Below, one piece after another: positions 40,455 through 48,088 of a stretch of 64,000 nucleotides of DNA. How positions within the stretch are numbered: position 1 is the stretch's first letter; every line of letters starts with the position of its first letter. This DNA comes from Rhizobium sp. GTDB lineage: Bacteria; Pseudomonadota; Alphaproteobacteria; Rhizobiales; Rhizobiaceae. Under the pieces are notes generated by a model. It ran no database searches, was not told the origin of the DNA, and saw nothing but the letters and a program-made list of their open reading frames with translations. The stretch covers positions 2,217-66,216 of the forward strand of contig JASGEG010000101.1 of the NCBI GenBank assembly GCA_047606605.1, read 5' to 3'. The translations under genes and the position numbers were made by a program.

Positions 40455-40593
40455 CCCTTTCTCACGGTTGTATTTTTCGCTGGCGATGACGGCATGATGA
40501 AATCTGCGGGAGCAGGAAGTCTTGCAGTTTGACTCAGGCGCAAAGCTTTGCCAGTTTCGCCTCATATACTTGTTCATTTGTGAGGAGGCTTCC

Positions 40594-41775
40594 ATGAGCA
40601 ATTCATCCATCGTCGTCGCCGGCGCGGCCCGTACCGCCGTCGGTTCCTTCAACGGCGCCTTTGCGAGCGTTGCGGCGCACGAGCTTGGTGCGACCGCCAT
40701 CAAGGGAGCCCTGGAGCGCGCCGGCGTCGACGCCAAGGAAGTCGACGAGGTCATCCTCGGCCAGGTTCTGCAGGCCGGCGAAGGGCAGAATCCGGCCCGC
40801 CAGGCCGCGATGAAGGCCGGCATCCCGCAGGAGGCGACCGCCTGGAGCGTCAACCAGCTTTGCGGCTCCGGCCTGCGCGCCGTCGCACTCGGATTGCAGC
40901 AGATCGCGACGGGCGACGCCAAGATCATCGTCGCCGGCGGCCAGGAGTCCATGTCGATGGCCCCGCATGCCGCCCATCTGCGCGCCGGCACCAAGATGGG
41001 CGACATGAAGATGATCGACACCATGATCAAGGACGGCCTGACGGACGCCTTCTACGGCTATCACATGGGCATCACGGCGGAGAACATCGCCCGCCAGTGG
41101 CAGCTTTCGCGCGACGATCAGGACCAGTTCGCCGTCGCCTCCCAGAACAAGGCCGAGGCCGCGCAGAAGGCCGGGCGGTTCAAGGATGAGATCGTTCCCT
41201 TCACCATCCAGACCCGCAAGGGCGACGTCACCGTCGATGCCGACGAATACATCCGCCATGGCGCGACGCTCGACGGCATGACGAAACTGCGCCCGGCCTT
41301 CGACAAGGACGGCACGGTGACGGCGGCCAATGCGTCCGGCCTCAACGACGGTGCGGCCGCGGCCGTGCTGATGACCGAGGCGGAAGCCTCGCGCCGCGGC
41401 ATCCAGCCGCTTGCCCGCATCGTGTCCTGGGCGACGGCCGGCGTCGATCCCAAGATCATGGGCACCGGCCCGATCCCGGCCTCGCGCAAGGCGCTGGAAA
41501 AGGCTGGCTGGTCCGTCGGCGACCTCGATCTCGTCGAGGCCAACGAGGCCTTCGCCGCCCAGGCTTGCGCCGTCAACAAGGATCTCGGCTGGGATACGTC
41601 GATCGTCAACGTCAATGGCGGCGCCATCGCCATCGGTCACCCGATCGGCGCATCCGGCGCCCGCATCCTCAACACGCTGCTGTTCGAAATGAAGCGTCGC
41701 GGCGCCCGCAAGGGTCTCGCCACGCTGTGCATCGGCGGCGGCATGGGCGTTGCCATGTGCTTCGAGGCGCTGTGA
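40594..41775 (+). CDS. phbA: Acetyl-CoA acetyltransferase (beta-ketothiolase)
   Basis: [24 protein letters not shown]. Confidence 0.95.
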
Positions 41776-41798
41776 CGCGCCTTTGCGCGTCGGCGTCG

Positions 41799-41904
41799 CA
41801 GAGCAATTCCAGGAAAAGTGCGTGAGCCGCTTTCCGTCCGGAATTGCGTAGCAACCAAGAGATAGAGCGTTTTCGCGATTCGGCGAAAAGCGGAAATGCT
41901 CTAG
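41799..41904 (+). repeat. RIME/MITE-like repeat, copy 2
   Basis: gagcaattccaggaaaagtgcgtgagccgctttccgtccggaattgcgt...ggaaatgctctag. Confidence 0.8.
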
Positions 41905-42003
41905 AAGACAGTCTCGAATTATTGTCCAGAAGAAACGGCAAAGGCGGAGCGGGCGACCGGAGGATCGGTCGTCCCGTCCCCGCCGCAACAAGGGGAGTGG
42001 CAC

Positions 42004-42729
42004 ATGAGCAGAGTGGCGTTGGTGACGGGGGGGACGCGCGGCATCGGAGCGGCGATTTCGATGGCGCTGCGCAATGCCGGCTATAAGGTTGCGGCGACCT
42101 ATGCCGGCAACGAGGAGAAAGCCCGCGCCTTTCATGAGGTGACGGGCATTTCCGTCTACAAGTGGGACGTGACGAGCTACGAAGACTGTGGCAAGGGCAT
42201 CGCCAAGGTCGAGGCCGAACTCGGCCCCGTCGAGATCCTCGTCAACAATGCCGGGATCACCCGCGACGCCATGTTCCACAAGATGACGCCGCAGCAATGG
42301 AACGAGGTGATCAGCACCAACCTCACCGGCCTGTTCAACATGACGCATCATGTCTGGCAGGGCATGCGCGACCGCAGTTTCGGCCGCGTCATCAATATTT
42401 CCTCGATCAATGGCCAGAAGGGTCAGATGGGCCAGGCGAACTATTCCGCCGCCAAGGCCGGCGACCTCGGCTTCACCAGGGCGCTTGCCCAGGAAGGTGC
42501 TGCCAAGAACATCACGGTCAACGCCATTTGCCCCGGCTATATCGGCACGGAAATGGTGCTTGCGGTGCCGGAAAAGGTGTTGAACGAGCGCATCATCCCG
42601 CAGATCCCGGTCGGACGCCTGGGCGAGCCGGAAGAGATCGCCCGCGCCGTCGTCTTCCTGGCCGCCGACGATGCCGGCTTCATCACCGGATCGACGATCA
42701 GCGCCAATGGCGGACAGTTCTTCGCCTGA
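42004..42729 (+). CDS. phbB: Acetoacetyl-CoA reductase
   Basis: TGGTRGIG, NGQKGQMGQANYSAAK; follows phbA. Confidence 0.95.
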   Translation: MSRVALVTGGTRGIGAAISMALRNAGYKVAATYAGNEEKARAFHEVTGISVYKWDVTSYEDCGKGIAKVEAELGPVEILVNNAGITRDAMFHKMTPQQWNEVISTNLTGLFNMTHHVWQGMRDRSFGRVINISSINGQKGQMGQANYSAAKAGDLGFTRALAQEGAAKNITVNAICPGYIGTEMVLAVPEKVLNERIIPQIPVGRLGEPEEIARAVVFLAADDAGFITGSTISANGGQFFA

Positions 42730-42743
42730 TTGCGAAAAGCGAT

Positions 42744-42776
42744 ACGGTGATTGCCGGGGCTCCCGGCAATCACCGT
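42744..42776. terminator. Hairpin between convergent genes (possible bidirectional terminator)
   Basis: acggtgattgccggg-gct-cccggcaatcaccgt. Confidence 0.65.
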
Positions 42777-42943
42777 GCGCGGGAATTCGTGGAGTGCGGC
42801 TGTCTCGGTTTGAATTCGAGGACGACGGGCTTGAAGACCATGCGGCGCATTTCCCGGTCGCGGACCCGCGACGCATAGATGAGCACGACGAAACTCGTGC
42901 CGACGAGGGCGAGCGCTGCGATGCTTGCGATGATCAAGACCAT
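42770..42943 (-). CDS. Small single-TM protein (57 aa), absent from ORF track
   Basis: AAGGAGG RBS; MVLIIASIAALALVGTSFVVLIYASRVRDREMRRMVFKPVVLEFKPRQPHSTNSRAR. Confidence 0.65.
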   Translation of the reverse strand: MVLIIASIAALALVGTSFVVLIYASRVRDREMRRMVFKPVVLEFKPRQPHSTNSRAR

Positions 42944-43103
42944 GATGCCGTTTCCTCCTTACATCATTTCCCGCGCGGCTGGCGCGCGGTAAACCTCTCG
43001 TCGCGGTCATCTCCTCAAAATGGTGCCGCGGCGACTTCGGCCGGTCGCCAATGGTACATAGGCAACCGGCCGCGCACAACCGGCTTTTACCGGTCAGACC
43101 TTC

Positions 43104-43197
43104 GAGCGTTTCAGAGAATCGCTGAAACGCTCCAACTTTTCGCTTCTATGCAATTCCGAACGGAAAACCGCTCTGCGCTTTTCCTGGAATGGCTTTA
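43104..43197 (-). repeat. RIME/MITE-like repeat, copy 3 (diverged)
   Basis: Minus strand taaagccattccaggaaaag...ttccgttcggaattgc...gagcgtttcagcgatt. Confidence 0.7.
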
Positions 43198-43449
43198 GCG
43201 GCAACGAGCCTCGTAGCGGTTGCCGTAGCGGTCGCGGTAGATGCAATAGCCGCGGCGCTCATGGGAGCGGCCGATGAGATTGCCGACAACACCGCCCGCA
43301 ACCGCGCCGACCGCGGCACCGCCCCAGCTATTGGTGGCGACGCCGCCGATCAGCGCGCCGGTTCCCGCGCCGATGGCCGTCCCTTTTTCCGTTGCGGTGC
43401 ACGAGGCGAGTGCCCCGACCAGCGCAATCGCGACGATGACTTTCTTCAT
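43195..43449 (-). CDS. Glycine-zipper lipoprotein
   Basis: MKK..LASC lipobox, GAGTGALIGG/GAVAGGVVG repeats, Cys-containing C-terminus. Confidence 0.85.
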   Translation of the reverse strand: MKKVIVAIALVGALASCTATEKGTAIGAGTGALIGGVATNSWGGAAVGAVAGGVVGNLIGRSHERRGYCIYRDRYGNRYEARCR

Positions 43450-43496
43450 GGTGGTTGCTCCCTGATGTAGCGAGGTTTTCAACATTATTCGCCGGA

Positions 43497-43652
43497 TCAG
43501 ATCCGGCCCATCAGCAATAGAATGAGAACAATGACGAGAACGAGGCCAAGACCGCCAGATGGACCATATCCCCAGGCTCGGCTGTATCCCCAGCTCGGGA
43601 GAGCGCCGATCAGCATGAGAATCAGGATGACGAGTAATATCGTGCCAAGCAT
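43497..43652 (-). CDS. DUF3309-family small membrane protein
   Basis: MLGTILLVILILMLIGALPSWGYSRAWGYGPSGGLG; GGAGG RBS. Confidence 0.88.
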   Translation of the reverse strand: MLGTILLVILILMLIGALPSWGYSRAWGYGPSGGLGLVLVIVLILLLMGRI

Positions 43653-43785
43653 GGCTTGTTTCCTCCGCGTCCAGCGTCCGGAGCATCCGCCCGAATGAGA
43701 TTTCACCCGTTCAACGCCGCTCCGGCCGATGCACCGCTTTTTCGCTCCTACCAAGCGAAGGGCGCATCAGTTTCGCTAGAGACAG

Positions 43786-43810
43786 AACTCGTACCGGAAG
43801 AAATTGTTCC
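43786..43810 (-). promoter_or_regulatory. Putative EcfG/RpoE2 promoter for the small-protein genes
   Basis: Minus strand GGAAC-N16-AGTT. Confidence 0.5.
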
Positions 43811-43863
43811 GGCTCAGAAATAACAGCGGCCGCGAAAGCAGGTCGAAACGCCTCACCAAAATA

Positions 43864-44758
43864 TTAACGAACGATGCCGCGATGCCGGTAAAATCAGGCC
43901 CGCACAGCTTGAGCGTATGGTTAAAAATATATTTAAATACAATATGTTGCGGTGAGCGAAACGAGAAAGTTCCGATGTCCGTGATTCGTCAGCGATTCGT
44001 TCCGCATTTGGCCCTTGGTTAACGTCGGGGCGCCGTCGAAGGCAAAAGGGCCGGCCTCCAACGCCTGCGTAGCGTCGGACTCGATCGCCGAAAAGTGGTG
44101 CTGCATCATCGCGAGAGGTTAAGATCGGGCGTGCCGCCGGTCGATCTGGCTTCGCACCTCCCTCTCGATCTGGAGGGGTCTTGCGACTGGTCCGCTACAT
44201 CTAGTCGTGAACAAATGCGATACCCGATGGAATCAGCGATTCGTCGCCGATTCGTTCCGGCTTTGGTCGAAGTGTTAATGAGTTCAATTTTTACGCGAGT
44301 TTTCCAATTCGGATTGCTTCATTTCGCTCAAAGGTTAATTGCAATCCACGATTCGGTCCGAATCAACGCTTCTACCATGCAGAGTCCTGTGTATTTTGCT
44401 CGTCGAGACGCTAGATCTTGTGGGGAACAAACAAGGAATTTGTCGAAGTCGGCGATTCGTCGCCGATTCGTTCCGGCTTTGACCCGAATCTTAACGGAGC
44501 GGCTTCCTGAGCCGGATTCGGCAGAAAATTATGGGAATTTACAATTGGTTAACCATGTTCTCCGGTCCGCCTTCCAGCTTCGGGCGAATCCTTGCTTGAC
44601 TCTGTTTCCTCGAAAAATGCGGGTCTGGGCATGATTCAGTATCTGGTGGGAATCGGTGCCGGAAAATCCATATATAGCGGTGAACGGAAAGGGAACGATG
44701 GGGAGTCAGCGATTCGTCGCCGATTCGTTCTCAAGCTGTTCCGGACTCGCCGGGACTC
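43864..44758. repeat. Four-unit non-coding array of fixed-spacing motifs, GANTC-rich
   Basis: Units start at 43937, 44192, 44408 and 44665; shared core GATTCGTC(GC/AG)CGATTCGTTC at offset +46 in all four. Confidence 0.9.
44682..44741. promoter_or_regulatory. Two consensus alphaproteobacterial LexA (SOS) boxes in inverted orientation
   Basis: GAAC-GGAAAGG-GAAC (44682-44696) and GTTC-TCAAGCT-GTTC (44727-44741). Confidence 0.55.
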
Positions 44759-44938
44759 GCCCTGGCTGTGGCCGCAATGTAGCCTGTGGTTGAGGTTGCC
44801 AATTATAAAATCGAATGTTGTGGCCGTTGTTTTTGCATTCAGGTCTTGCCTTTGTCACATATGGTCGTCATCTGTTCTTCTCTTCCCTGGGGAGCTTGCT
44901 GATCGGAAGACGGTGGTTTCTCGCGCATGCATGGACCT

Positions 44939-47900
44939 ATGACTCAAACCTCGCAGCCAATGATCCTGAGCGGACGCGGTGTGACCGCGGTGCTCGGGCC
45001 GACCAATACCGGCAAAACCCATTACGCCATCGAGCGCATGGTGGCGCACGGCAATGGCGTGATCGGCCTGCCGCTGCGGCTGCTGGCGCGTGAGGTCTAT
45101 GGCCGCGTCGTCGAGAAGGTCGGCGTCCAGAACGTCGCGCTGGTTACCGGCGAGGAAAAGATCTCGCCGCCGAATGCGCGCTATTCGGTCTGCACCGTCG
45201 AAGCCATGCCGCGCGACACGCGCGCCTCCTTCGTCGCCATCGACGAGGTGCAGCTTGCCGGCGATCTGGAGCGCGGCCATATCTTCACCGACCGCATCCT
45301 GCATCTGCGCGGCCGCGACGAGACGCTGCTGCTCGGCGCCGGCACGATGCGGCCGATCCTGGAGCAGCTCTTGCCGGGGATCACCGTCGTCGAACGGCCG
45401 CGCCTGTCGCATCTCTTCTATGCCGGGCAGAAGAAGATCACCCGCCTGCCGCAGCGCACGGCGATCGTCGCCTTCTCGGCCGACGAGGTCTATGCCATCG
45501 CCGAGCTCATCCGCCGCCAGCGCGGTGGTGCTGCCGTCGTCCTCGGCGCGCTCAGCCCGCGCACCCGCAATGCCCAGGTGGCGCTCTATCAGGCGGGCGA
45601 CGTCGAATATCTGGTGGCGACCGATGCCATCGGCATGGGCCTCAACCTCGATGTCGATCATGTCGCCTTCGCCCAGGACCGCAAGTTCGACGGCTATCAG
45701 TTCCGCAATCTCAATCCGGCCGAGCTCGGCCAGATCGCCGGCCGCGCCGGCCGTCACCTCAAGGACGGCACTTTCGGCGTCACCGGCCATGTCGATCCCT
45801 TCGACGACGAGCTGGTGCGGCGGATCGAAGGTCACGAATTCGATACGGTCAAGGTGCTGCAATGGCGCACCAAGGAATTCGATTTCTCCTCGATCGCCGC
45901 GCTGCGCGCGAGCCTCGAAAGCGCGCCGCGCGTTCAGGGCTTGACGCGGGCGCTGCCGGCGGTCGACCAGCAGGCGCTGGACTATTTGTCGCGGGATCTG
46001 GAGATCGCCGATCTTGCCAGCAATCCGGCGCGCGTGGAAAAATTATGGGAAGCCTGTGCGCTTCCCGACTATCGGCGCATTACGCCCGCCCAGCATGCCG
46101 ATCTTATCGCAACCCTCTTTTCCGACCTCGTGCGCTATGGCACGGTGAAAGAGGACTTCCTTGCCGAGCAGGTGCACCGCGCCGATCGCACGGATGGCGA
46201 GATCGACACGCTTTCGGCGCGAATCGCGCAGATAAGGACTTGGACCTATGTGTCGAACCGGCCAGGTTGGCTTGCCGATCCGACACACTGGCAAGAAAAG
46301 ACGCGGGAAATCGAAGATCGATTGTCCGATGCGTTACATGAGAGGTTGACGAAACGCTTTGTTGATCGCAGGACATCTGTGCTCATGAAGCGCCTGAGAG
46401 AGAATGCGATGCTGGAAGCTGAAATCAGTGTGAATGGGGATGTCTTCGTTGAGGGGCATCATGTGGGACAGTTGACCGGATTCCGGTTCACGCCAATCGC
46501 GGGAACCGAGGGGCCGGACGCCAAGGCTGTCCAGACCGCCTCGCAGAAGGCGCTGGCGCTGGAGTTCGAGGCGCGCGCCGCCCGTATCCATGCGGCCGGC
46601 AACAGCGATCTGGCGATCAGCGCCGATGGACTCGTCCGTTGGCTCGGCGATCCCGTGGCGCGCCTGTCGGGCAGCGATCATGTCATGCGCCCGCGCGTCA
46701 TCCTGCTCGCCGACGAGCAGCTGACGGGCAATGCGCGCGACCATGTCGCCGCGCGCATCGAGCGTTTCGTGAACCATCACGTCAGCACCATCCTGAAGCC
46801 GCTCGACGATCTCCAGCGCGCCGAGGACCTGCAGGGGCTGGCCAAGGGGCTGGCCTTCCAGCTCGTCGAAAATCTCGGCGTTCTGTTCCGCCGCGACGTC
46901 ACGGAAGAAGTGAAGTCGCTGGATCAGGATGCGCGCGCCTCCATGCGTCGCTACGGCGTCCGCTTCGGCGCCTATCATATCTTCGTACCGGCTCTCCTGA
47001 AGCCGGCGCCGGCCGAACTCATCACCCTGCTCTGGGCGCTGAAGAACGACGGCCTCGACAAGCCGGGCTATGGCGATCTGATTCCGGTTCTGGCCGCCGG
47101 CCGTACCTCCGTCGTCACCGATCCGAGCTTTGAGCGTACCTTCTACAAGCTCGCCGGTTTCCGGTTCCTCGGCAAGCGCGCCGTGCGCATCGACATCCTC
47201 GAGCGCCTGGCGGATATCATCCGTCCGCTGCTGCAGTGGAAGCCCGGCCAGGCCTCGCGTCCGGAAGGCGCCTATGACGGCCGCCGCTTCACCACCACGA
47301 CGGCGATGCTCTCGATCCTCGGCGCGACGCTGGAAGACATGGAAGAAATCCTCAAGGGTCTCGGCTATCGCGCCGATGCCGTGAAGGCGGAGGAGGCGGC
47401 AGCCTTCCTCGCGCAGCAGGACGCTTCCTCGGCTCCGGCGCCGCAGGCCGCCGAAGCATCGGCCGAAAAGGCCGATCATGACGACGCCGACGGCGCGGGC
47501 GATGAGCCGGCTACGGAAGGTGCGGCCGCCGTACAGGATGCGGCTCCGGCCGCGGATGTGCCGGCCGAGCCGGTTGCCGCCGCCGAGGACACCGCAGCCG
47601 TTGCCACCGACCCGGAGGCTGTCGCCGCCGAGCCGGTCGAACCGAAGCCGGTTCTGTTGTGGCGCCTTGGCGGGCGCGGCGACAACCAGCAGCGCCAGGG
47701 CGGACGCGGCCATGGCGATCGTCGCGGCCAGCAGGGCCAGGGCGAGGGACGCGGCTATCAGGGCAACCGTCGCGGCGGTGAGCAGGCGCAGGCAAGCGGC
47801 GAAGGCCGACGCGACGGCCGCGACAACCGCGAGGGGCGCGAAGCGCGCGGCGACAACAAGGGTCCGCGCGGCAATCGCGACGGCGGCCGTCCGCAGAACC

Positions 47901-48088
47901 AGGGCAATCGTTCCGACCGCAACGACCGTCAGGATCGCGGCGAACGGAAGGATCGCAATGACCGCAACAACCGCGGCGCATCGCAGCCGCTGCGCTTCGA
48001 GGCCAAGCCGCCGCGCAAGGAGAAGCCGATCGATCCGGATTCACCTTTCGCCAAGCTCGCTGCCCTCAAGGAGCAGATGAAGAAATAA
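44939..48088 (+). CDS. SUV3-like SF2 helicase (MgpS-like) with acidic/RG-rich disordered C-tail
   Basis: GPTNTGKT, DEVQ, ATDAIGMGLN, QIAGRAGR; ends DPDSPFAKLAALK; start 44939 or 44960. Confidence 0.9.
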   Translation: MTQTSQPMILSGRGVTAVLGPTNTGKTHYAIERMVAHGNGVIGLPLRLLAREVYGRVVEKVGVQNVALVTGEEKISPPNARYSVCTVEAMPRDTRASFVAIDEVQLAGDLERGHIFTDRILHLRGRDETLLLGAGTMRPILEQLLPGITVVERPRLSHLFYAGQKKITRLPQRTAIVAFSADEVYAIAELIRRQRGGAAVVLGALSPRTRNAQVALYQAGDVEYLVATDAIGMGLNLDVDHVAFAQDRKFDGYQFRNLNPAELGQIAGRAGRHLKDGTFGVTGHVDPFDDELVRRIEGHEFDTVKVLQWRTKEFDFSSIAALRASLESAPRVQGLTRALPAVDQQALDYLSRDLEIADLASNPARVEKLWEACALPDYRRITPAQHADLIATLFSDLVRYGTVKEDFLAEQVHRADRTDGEIDTLSARIAQIRTWTYVSNRPGWLADPTHWQEKTREIEDRLSDALHERLTKRFVDRRTSVLMKRLRENAMLEAEISVNGDVFVEGHHVGQLTGFRFTPIAGTEGPDAKAVQTASQKALALEFEARAARIHAAGNSDLAISADGLVRWLGDPVARLSGSDHVMRPRVILLADEQLTGNARDHVAARIERFVNHHVSTILKPLDDLQRAEDLQGLAKGLAFQLVENLGVLFRRDVTEEVKSLDQDARASMRRYGVRFGAYHIFVPALLKPAPAELITLLWALKNDGLDKPGYGDLIPVLAAGRTSVVTDPSFERTFYKLAGFRFLGKRAVRIDILERLADIIRPLLQWKPGQASRPEGAYDGRRFTTTTAMLSILGATLEDMEEILKGLGYRADAVKAEEAAAFLAQQDASSAPAPQAAEASAEKADHDDADGAGDEPATEGAAAVQDAAPAADVPAEPVAAAEDTAAVATDPEAVAAEPVEPKPVLLWRLGGRGDNQQRQGGRGHGDRRGQQGQGEGRGYQGNRRGGEQAQASGEGRRDGRDNREGREARGDNKGPRGNRDGGRPQNQGNRSDRNDRQDRGERKDRNDRNNRGASQPLRFEAKPPRKEKPIDPDSPFAKLAALKEQMKK

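Follow-up and report, generated by a model that had tools for sequence, protein, structure and literature searches.

We describe an array of four tandem repeat units upstream of a gene for a Suv3-like helicase in 64,000 nucleotides of a Rhizobium sp. genome (assembly GCA_047606605.1, contig JASGEG010000101.1, positions 2,217 to 66,216 of the forward strand; this whole stretch is the window, and coordinates below are positions within it). The array lies in an intergenic region of ~1.2 kb between a glycine-zipper gene and the helicase gene, and its GC content is 48–58% compared with 60–70% in the surroundings. Judged by its conservation the array is functional, and it is apparently an undescribed multi-regulator operator/promoter region. 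The interpretation to which we give an even chance is that it represents a tandemly amplified non-coding control module, a composite operator with a regulated promoter, that would couple expression of the helicase to DNA damage, deoxynucleoside triphosphate (dNTP) supply and DNA methylation. A first-pass annotation made from the letters of the window had suggested a nucleoprotein hub, a titration site or a multi-promoter control region, and the last of these is the most likely part of that suggestion. It had also failed to recognise the array as a known element; we found no published description in the literature, including by searching for sequence strings.

The array is defined by a core 20-mer, GATTCGTCNNCGATTCGTTC, which occurs exactly four times in the 64-kb window, at 43983, 44238, 44454 and 44711 on the + strand, with spacings of 255, 216 and 257 bp. 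Shuffling gives an expected count of 0.14, and none of 100 shuffled sequences (0/100) reached four copies. Elsewhere in the 5.44-Mb assembly there is a single match with two mismatches, and the 20-mer is otherwise private to this locus. Counted from the 20-mer, the gap-free alignment of the four units extends from about -77 to +40:

43906..44023, + strand: unit 1, furthest from the helicase, distal type; in register with the others, with a positional ortholog in R. leucaenae and in an R. etli-like genome
44161..44278, + strand: unit 2, distal type, in register with the other units
44377..44494, + strand: unit 3, distal type, in register with the other units
44634..44751, + strand: unit 4, helicase-proximal and of the ancestral type; ortholog of the single module in other Rhizobiales families

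The elements within a unit have the following positions relative to the first base of the 20-mer:

-77 to -62: box A, an NrdR-like box
-46 to -31: box B, an NrdR-like box
-29 to -15: L1, GAAC-N7-GAAn
-8 to -4: GAGTC, in proximal units only
-1 to 5 and 10 to 16: the YGATTCG pair, GcrA-type methylation sites
16 to 30: L2, GTTC-N7-GTTC
about +37: TTAA element

The geometry given in the first-pass annotation is accurate. Its unit starts (43937, 44192, 44408 and 44665) and its gap-free alignment hold, the starts being those of a 16-bp quasi-palindrome that corresponds to box B; counting from them, GAAC-N7-GAAn lies at +17, GATTC at +46 and +57, and GTTC-N7-GTTC at +62, the last perfect only in unit 4, and TTAA is present at -73 and +82/83 in units 1–3. 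The further remark that filler bases diverge while motif positions are fixed applies equally to 76 units from 25 genomes of the genus and to 285 distinct units of the family.

All of the other genus genomes examined (24/24) carry the array, with one to five matches spaced ~200–280 bp apart, and the 20-mer is nearly invariant across the family. Allowing up to two mismatches it is found in 149 of 201 genomes and 106 of 135 genera of the GTDB family, counts that include scattered two-mismatch matches outside the array, and usually as two to three tandem copies ~272–283 bp apart. Carriers of the array include Rhizobium, Ensifer, Mesorhizobium, Hoeflea, Brucella/Ochrobactrum, Bartonella, Nitratireductor, Martelella and Ahrensia; the genome that holds the window belongs to a Rhizobium close to R. 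leucaenae. In every fetched locus that covers the helicase gene, the array is co-oriented with it and lies just 5' of it, the last 20-mer being ~140–400 bp before the gene; the upstream neighbour differs between genera. Among 116 non-redundant complete arrays, a sample biased by the search pattern, one copy is present in 27, two in 61, three in 17 and four in 11.

Elsewhere in the order the helicase is encoded by 57 of 60 genomes sampled, one per family, and a single module lies 5' of it in ~22 of the 29 other families for which the upstream region was read; this is the conservation across Rhizobiales that the first-pass annotation had proposed looking for. The order-wide consensus of the module is c.a.at.t.g..ggGAAc.aA.c..gAa.c.....gaGTCagCGATTCGg.C....TTtGTTCc.gactcGTTCcg...gt.a., and in most module-bearing families YGAKTCK is positioned exactly 17 nt before a perfect GTTC-N7-GTTC, with an N7 spacer that varies. 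Outside the family, conservation extends to GTTC-N7-GTTC and the first YGAKTCG but not to the second GATTCG. The helicase also occurs outside the order, in 42 of 70 genomes, where it has zero to five GANTC sites upstream; the other alphaproteobacterial orders have this gene but no module, and only 1 of 29 upstream regions contains a LexA-type repeat (GAAC-N7-GAAC at -368). Conservation at the levels of genus, family and order supports the first-pass view that selection, and not recent duplication, accounts for the likeness of the units.

A maximum-likelihood tree of the 140-nt units is weakly resolved, with a supported clade (97/91) that unites most proximal units, those of Rhizobium, Ensifer, Mesorhizobium, Pseudaminobacter and Ciceribacter, with the single-copy modules of seven other families; for some other genera the tree does not place the proximal units. 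The partners of the window's distal units are the units at corresponding positions in R. leucaenae and the R. etli-like genome. From this clade and from the positional orthology of the distal units we conclude that the proximal unit is ancestral and that the distal units stem from old duplications and have persisted as distinct lineages. The two classes also differ in content. Proximal units have more matches to the box A core (5.6 of 8, versus 3.9 in distal units) and more GANTC sites (5.6 versus 2.6 per 140 bp), whereas TTAA near +37 is present in 61% of proximal and 91% of distal units. Both classes retain box B (6.6 of 8), the GAAC half-site and the YGATTCG pair, and the distal units have a signature of their own across genera (acaC.A.AT.TTG, GTGAAC, YGATTCG pair, CTTTG..C, GTTAAC). 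The motif likenesses named in the first-pass annotation were largely borne out by further tests, but it missed the single-copy origin of the module, the non-equivalence of the four copies and the separate downstream promoter of the helicase described below. A different arrangement of the 20-mer is seen in one genome from another family of the order, where two copies with two mismatches form an inverted pair 25 bp apart (G038:C5:102959-103003, L006/L031), on a different contig from the helicase gene of the same genome.

Three classes of predicted regulatory site recur in the units, and the assignment of LexA to the proximal unit, as a predicted operator, is the most secure. The alphaproteobacterial LexA motif is GTTC-N7-GTTC (PMC3323433), lexA is encoded in the genome, and unit 4 contains two repeats of this type:

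44682..44696, + strand: L1, GAAC-N7-GAAC; the equivalents in units 1–3 (43954, 44209 and 44425) are imperfect, GAAC-N7-GAAn or worse
44727..44741, + strand: L2, perfect GTTC-N7-GTTC, of the alphaproteobacterial SOS box type

A perfect GTTC-N7-GTTC is not rare by chance, so the case for LexA rests on the phylogenetic footprint and not on the match. The LexA-like motif noted in the first pass gains its support from the occurrence of GTTC-N7-GTTC, with a variable spacer, at the equivalent place upstream of the helicase in the same ~22 of 29 Rhizobiales families. L2 is perfect in 93% of 116 proximal units compared with 15% of 128 distal units. Its second half-site reads GGCC, GGTC or GACC in units 1–3 of the window (43999, 44254 and 44470) and GGCC, GGTC, GATC or GACC in distal units across arrays. 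The genome's own SOS boxes, at recA and at a dnaE2-type polymerase cassette, are of the form TTTGTTC-N7-GTTC, and the order-wide consensus at L2 (TTtGTTCc.gactcGTTC) has the TTT flank in common with them. In L1, GAAC followed by AAA is typical of the family (units 2 and 3 here; unit 4 reads GAACGGA) and matches the same recA and dnaE2-cassette boxes. The array resembles these SOS boxes in its direct repeats, invariant tetranucleotides, variable spacer and 5' TTT flank, as well as in its place just upstream of a gene plausibly tied to nucleic-acid metabolism. It differs in having two boxes of opposite orientation around a methylation-site core, intact in the proximal copy only, and in a spacer that often holds GANTC instead of AT-rich sequence.

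The NrdR assignment is secure as sequence similarity, and the boxes are predicted NrdR sites:

43937..43952, no strand assigned: box B of unit 1, NrdR-like, ATACAATATGTTGCGG, score 14.7, p = 2.8e-6
44192..44207, no strand assigned: box B of unit 2, NrdR-like, CCGCTACATCTAGTCG, score 12.0, p = 9e-6
44408..44423, no strand assigned: box B of unit 3, NrdR-like, ACGCTAGATCTTGTGG, score 15.9, p = 1.8e-6
44634..44680, no strand assigned: NrdR-like pair of unit 4, box A at 44634-44649 (p = 1.3e-4) and box B at 44665-44680 (p = 6.9e-4), 31 bp centre to centre

These p-values are genome-wide and derive from a matrix trained solely on six boxes, those of nrdJ and of a pair on contig C268 described below. 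A count of core matches in box pairs did not discriminate, ~150 pairs genome-wide having an equal score, and the matrix p-values were used in its place. The reciprocal matrix, built from array box B sequences only, places the boxes upstream of nrdJ (CCACAAGATATTGTGG and CCACTATATTTAGTGG) in the top ~10 of 10.9 million positions, and together with the values for box B of units 1–3 this bears out the NrdR-like motif of the first pass. NrdR boxes canonically have a spacer of 15–16 bp (PMC12051234), and NrdR operators consist of two boxes 15–16 bp or 25–26 bp apart; the spacer between boxes A and B is 15 bp in all units, but box A is acceptable only in unit 4 and, more generally, in proximal units. 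Box A of unit 4 has 12 of 16 bases in common with one box of the nrdJ operator pair. In the order-wide print, read by eye and unscored, boxes A and B occur together in ~12 families and are both missing in ~7. Both nrdR and nrdJ, the gene for a class II ribonucleotide reductase (RNR), are encoded in the genome, nrdJ on another contig than the array.

NrdR operators such as the nrdJ leader and that of Listeria nrdAB are similar to the array in the 16-bp palindrome acaCwAnATnTwGtgt and in the 15-bp spacer of the proximal boxes, and the nrdJ leader also in having multiple boxes over a long leader with GANTC-rich surroundings; the nrdAB operon of Listeria monocytogenes has distal as well as proximal box pairs (PMC12051234). 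The array is different from these operators in that the downstream gene is the helicase, so it does not stand at an RNR operon, in that its distal units have one good box only, and in that its boxes are set in a repeat of fixed geometry with LexA- and GcrA-type sites. In this genome the nrdJ leader (G000:C28:10142-10685, locus L225:1142-1685) is ~770 bp long, contains eight GANTC sites and is among the next most GANTC-rich loci of the genome. A canonical NrdR pair (31 bp centre to centre) lies ~130–175 bp before the start codon, two strong boxes stand singly 246 and 251 bp upstream of the pair, and this layout strikingly resembles the 255/216/257-bp spacing of the array. Two further NrdR-type pairs were seen. 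One, on C268 (G000:C268:13019-13065, L191:2520-2566), consists of CCACAAGATGTTGTGG and a second box 31 bp away, is among the best of the genome, and lies ~290 bp 5' of a PAS/HisKA histidine kinase gene, in the interval that separates this gene from ahcY; it is a possible non-RNR target of NrdR. The other, on C157 upstream of a gene for an RpiR-family regulator, is at a contig end and is uninformative.

The third class comprises GANTC sites, the first-pass annotation having pointed to CcrM methylation:

43983..44758, no strand assigned: GANTC super-cluster, 22 sites (776 bp), the densest of the genome
43982..43999, + strand: YGATTCG-N4-YGATTCG pair of unit 1, two GANTC sites with a GcrA-type extension, 11 bp apart
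44237..44254, + strand: YGATTCG pair of unit 2
44453..44470, + strand: YGATTCG pair of unit 3
44710..44727, + strand: YGATTCG pair of unit 4

GANTC is scarce in the genome as a whole (mean 1.2 per kb, compared with ~3.4 per kb expected from composition), whereas the best 800-bp window of the array contains 21 sites and the next-best locus of the genome eight. The GcrA consensus is TGATTCG, or more broadly YGAKTCK (PMC4647560), and the paired YGATTCG equals it. YGAKTCK reaches 9 per 800 bp in the array, the top cluster of the genome, against a genome mean of 0.21 and five at the next-best loci, and in five genomes of four genera the YGATTCG-N4-YGATTCG pair is restricted to the array. These are predicted GcrA sites, a motif match with extreme local enrichment, and the genome has genes for gcrA and an N6-adenine methyltransferase. 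The array is akin to GcrA/CcrM promoters of Caulobacter in its YGAKTCG/TGATTCG motif, its two nearby boxes and the presence of gcrA and adenine methyltransferase genes. PmipZ has two GcrA boxes at +4 and +12, and ctrA P1 is another such promoter (PMC4647560, PMC9976885). In contrast to these promoters, the density of sites (22 GANTC in 776 bp) and their tandem repetition have no described counterpart that we found in the literature.

CtrA half-sites had also been suggested, and here only part of the suggestion stands: TTAA half-sites are present, but full TTAA-N7-TTAA occurs in just 10 of 136 arrays. The array of the window has TTAA half-sites together with two CtrA-type sites with one mismatch, and no full TTAA-N7-TTAA(C). 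TTAA itself is 27-fold enriched, at 8.7 per kb in the arrays (window positions 43700-44926 and 136 orthologous arrays) compared with 0.32 per kb genome-wide, and the enriched copies are mostly GGTTAA(C) at fixed offsets. One of the mismatched sites, TTTACAATTGGTTAACCAT at 44538-44556 between units 3 and 4 (TTTA-N7-TTAAC), contains TTAACCAT, and ATTTACA-N5-TTAACC between units 3 and 4 recurs at the equivalent place in several genomes of the genus.

The gene downstream of the array and its promoter are as follows:

44927..48088, + strand: Suv3-like helicase gene, with a probable true start ATG at 44939
44845..44873, + strand: P1, a sigma-70-type promoter of the helicase, CTTGCC-17 bp-TCATCT, downstream of the array

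The helicase matches Pfam DEXQc_Suv3 (1.6e-25) and Helicase_C, and the yeast Suv3 structure 6f4a with E = 6.7e-36, which agrees with its description as SUV3-like in the first-pass annotation. Its C-terminal ~770 residues (281-1053, window positions 45767-48088) gave no Pfam, NCBIfam or PDB sequence match. The protein appears to be unstudied; the S. meliloti ortholog, SMc03877, is named only in unrelated literature, and we found no report in the literature of the helicase as a member of the SOS regulon.

Raw stranded RNA-seq reads from three runs were placed on the orthologous locus (L010) of the R. etli-like relative. In this locus + strand RNA 5' ends pile up at L010:2054/2062, where depth rises from ~20 to 200–500, and the homolog of P1, CTTGCG-17-CCATGT, stands just upstream of these ends; by homology, the P1 start site in the window is inferred to be at ~44880-44896. 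The array itself has sense coverage of 5–30x and antisense coverage of 1–14x, compared with 200–500x over the helicase, and the divergent upstream gene starts at L010:1306-1315. With coverage this low there is no abundant array RNA in the conditions sampled; this is as expected of a repressed promoter, yet it is no proof regarding induction. Run X23 shows two discrete + strand signals of ~100 nt (L010:1496-1599 and ~1892-1979, depth 10–35 reads), with zero coverage between them; one begins near the YGATTCG pair of the first unit and the other near that of the last. Relative to a transcription start, GcrA boxes act at -20/-30 or between +5 and +30 (PMC9976885), and the weak RNA 5' boundary near the first box would fit the downstream position, although no start is mapped in the unit. 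An RNA contig of run X1 spans the whole stretch and cannot show transcription. The portions of supplementary text available from the S. meliloti transcription start site map, the R. etli RNA-seq and the CtrA chromatin immunoprecipitation papers list neither a start site nor a peak in this interval. In some families the module is estimated, by extrapolation from protein alignments, to lie 35–100 nt from the helicase start, which leaves little space for another promoter.

These observations can be combined as follows; the proteins bound, a promoter within the module and its induction we infer from the likenesses set out above. An ancestral single module arose in the order Rhizobiales, with an NrdR-type pair (15-bp spacer), two opposite LexA-type repeats (GAAC-N7-GAAn and TTTGTTC-N7-GTTC), phased GANTC sites with a GcrA-type extension between and around the repeats, and a TTAA element. 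In one large family it was then duplicated to two to five copies. The full set survives in the proximal copy, whereas the distal copies retain TTAA, the GAAC half-site, the YGATTCG pair and a strong NrdR-type box. As long as a cell is undamaged and replete in dNTPs, the module would be occupied by LexA dimers and by NrdR loaded with ATP/dATP, which would keep its promoter or promoters nearly silent, and the helicase would be made from the downstream P1. Cleavage of LexA upon DNA damage, or release of NrdR as dNTPs fall, would open the module to RNA polymerase. GcrA-sigma-70 would be drawn to the methylated YGATTCG sites, and output would for that reason depend on methylation state, as set by replication fork passage and CcrM. 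Transcripts would read through the array into the helicase gene. The distal copies would add NrdR- and GcrA-type sites, and perhaps start points, ~200–280 bp apart, as in the layout of the nrdJ leader.

Several observations weigh against this scheme. No start site maps inside any unit in the R. etli-like RNA-seq data, where helicase transcripts begin 3' of the array, and no convincing -35/-10 elements were recognised within the unit. Box A of units 1–3 is weak or absent (p >= 0.002), and NrdR normally requires two boxes (PMC12051234). LexA-type repeats (GTTC-N7-GTTC or GAAC-N7-GAAC) number 130 genome-wide, which is about the number expected by chance, and the module does not have the AT-rich N7 spacers seen in the recA and dnaE2 boxes. 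The second LexA half-site is missing from the distal units, so that their conservation cannot be attributed to LexA and NrdR. Finally, the 20-mer varies far less than factor sites typically do and is unique to the locus, which fits a dedicated binding protein as well.

Such a protein is the basis of the explanation that ranks next, which we regard as distinctly less probable. The units would bind a dedicated DNA-binding protein, for example a response-regulator-like factor recognising the 11-bp repeat GTCnnCGATTC, that controls the helicase or the local DNA structure, and the likeness to NrdR, LexA and GcrA sites would be partly coincidental. The invariance of the 20-mer in the family exceeds that usual for sites of global regulators, the locus-specific pair is what a one-target regulator would give, GTC/GTT repeats recur with an 11-bp period at -6, +5, +16 and +27 of the unit, and distal units keep the core while losing the LexA and box A features. 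However, there is no linked candidate regulator gene, the upstream neighbour varying between genera, and outside the family it is GTTC-N7-GTTC and the first YGAKTCG that persist while the second GATTCG does not. Independent matrix tests moreover connect box B with the nrdJ operators, and the TTT flank connects L2 with the genome's own SOS boxes.

It is doubtful that the array is a nucleoprotein or epigenetic device and not a promoter, an origin-proximal GANTC cluster that titrates factors or reports fork passage by hemi-methylation. This idea accommodates the densest GANTC and YGAKTCK cluster of the genome, the amplification of site copies without a matching rise in transcription, and the strong NrdR-type boxes every ~250 bp both here and in the nrdJ leader. 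The orthologous locus of S. meliloti lies ~108 kb from coordinate 0 (phbB at 3,546,4xx), on what we take to be the chromosome size and origin position of that species. The datA locus (bound by DnaA) and the SeqA-bound GATC clusters of E. coli present a similar local pile-up of sites for replication-linked factors and methylation, but only by analogy, since the factors differ and the linkage of the array to a single downstream gene is strict. With two to five units at most, and ~10 sites per factor, the array would be a small sink; many families have a single module; and proximity to the origin is not uniform among the complete genomes examined. Strict linkage and co-orientation with one gene across the order indicate cis-regulation of the helicase instead.

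We also think it unlikely that each unit comprises a promoter and the 5' part of a short unstructured transcript of ~100 nt, making the array a tandem family of stress-induced small RNAs (sRNAs) or leader RNAs. The ~100-nt signals of run X23 that start near the YGATTCG pairs would agree with this, and tandem paralogous sRNA genes, AbcR1 and AbcR2, are known in the group; the array is like these and other multi-copy sRNA arrays in its intergenic head-to-tail repeats of 200–280 bp. It is unlike them in lacking an Rfam match, a conserved fold, terminators and abundant transcripts. The X23 signals are only 10–35 reads deep, sequence beyond +45 is unconserved between units, and the conserved part lies mostly 5' of the apparent transcript ends. 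RNAalifold gave no conserved structure on either strand, and there is no covariation. An Rfam scan of the region at E <= 10, and another of eight orthologous loci at the gathering threshold, returned nothing relevant, so that no known Rfam family, an outcome that the first-pass annotation had allowed for, accounts for the array. We found no terminator-like hairpins after the units in the window. A hairpin in the core, GCGA-UUCG-UCGC, was rejected, as canonical pairing at its variable positions over the 285 distinct units equals the independent-column expectation (0.89 versus 0.89, 0.58 versus 0.57 and 0.32 versus 0.31).

The array could alternatively act as a replication-timed epigenetic switch, co-occupied by NrdR, LexA and GcrA at origin-proximal, helically phased GANTC sites, in which fork passage would cause hemi-methylation and so alter occupancy; we consider this improbable. 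The distal NrdR and GcrA sites may in that case buffer the proximal operator or form loops with it, as in the nrdJ leader. Such a switch would link the helicase, and possibly also the levels of free NrdR and GcrA, to the onset of S phase, dNTP supply and DNA damage. That the distal copies are neutral leftovers of promoter duplication is very improbable: they no longer have a second LexA half-site or a good box A, but their signature is kept across genera, they are positional orthologs between species, the spacing of units 2 and 3 is fixed at 216 bp (215 once) in 9 of 9 four-unit arrays checked in the genus, and the flanking filler has diverged freely.

Other identities for the array were tried and set aside. 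It is non-coding, as the first-pass annotation held: a 203-aa stop-free stretch is not preserved in relatives and two variable core positions change non-synonymously, and neither a 179-aa open reading frame (ORF) through units 2 and 3 (44095-44634) nor the 'SAIRRRFVPAL' frame is conserved in relatives. An origin of replication with iterons was rejected, there being no DnaA box within one mismatch in the array of the window and no hemE-type neighbourhood. EcfG/ECF (GGAAC-N16-17-CGTT), sigma-54 and standard sigma-70 -35/-10 elements gave no consistent fit to the unit by eye, and a consensus promoter scan returned a single weak site in the array, at 44518-44545.

The gene order around the array is phaR, phbA, phbB, the glycine-zipper gene, the array, the helicase gene, an S4/Hsp15 gene, carD, a sigma factor gene and an M48 peptidase gene. 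Its upstream neighbour is:

43195-43686, - strand: glycine-zipper outer-membrane protein gene

Just 3' of this gene, at 43048-43205 on the - strand, is a sub-threshold Rfam match to the Brucella sRNA CI27 (RF02600; 23 bits compared with a gathering score of 59.8, E = 0.034) that covers the full model length and includes several hairpins; it may be a diverged sRNA or an element of a 3' untranslated region. A 757-aa ORF on the - strand (40603-42876) has no family match and overlaps the genuine + strand genes phbA (40522-41775, thiolase) and phbB (42004-42729, SDR), and we therefore regard it as a spurious high-GC ORF.

In the Rhizobiales, which here include rhizobia, Agrobacterium relatives, Brucella and Bartonella, the array marks an uncharacterised, order-wide helicase as a probable member of the SOS regulon and a possible member of the NrdR and GcrA/CcrM regulons. 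As the strongest GANTC/GcrA-motif cluster of the genome, it offers a natural test bed for the interplay of CcrM methylation, GcrA, LexA and NrdR on one DNA, for the reason why operators are amplified in tandem, and for the action of NrdR beyond RNR genes. The locus is easily located, and these questions can therefore be addressed in model strains, for instance in the phbB-SMc03877 intergenic region of S. meliloti.

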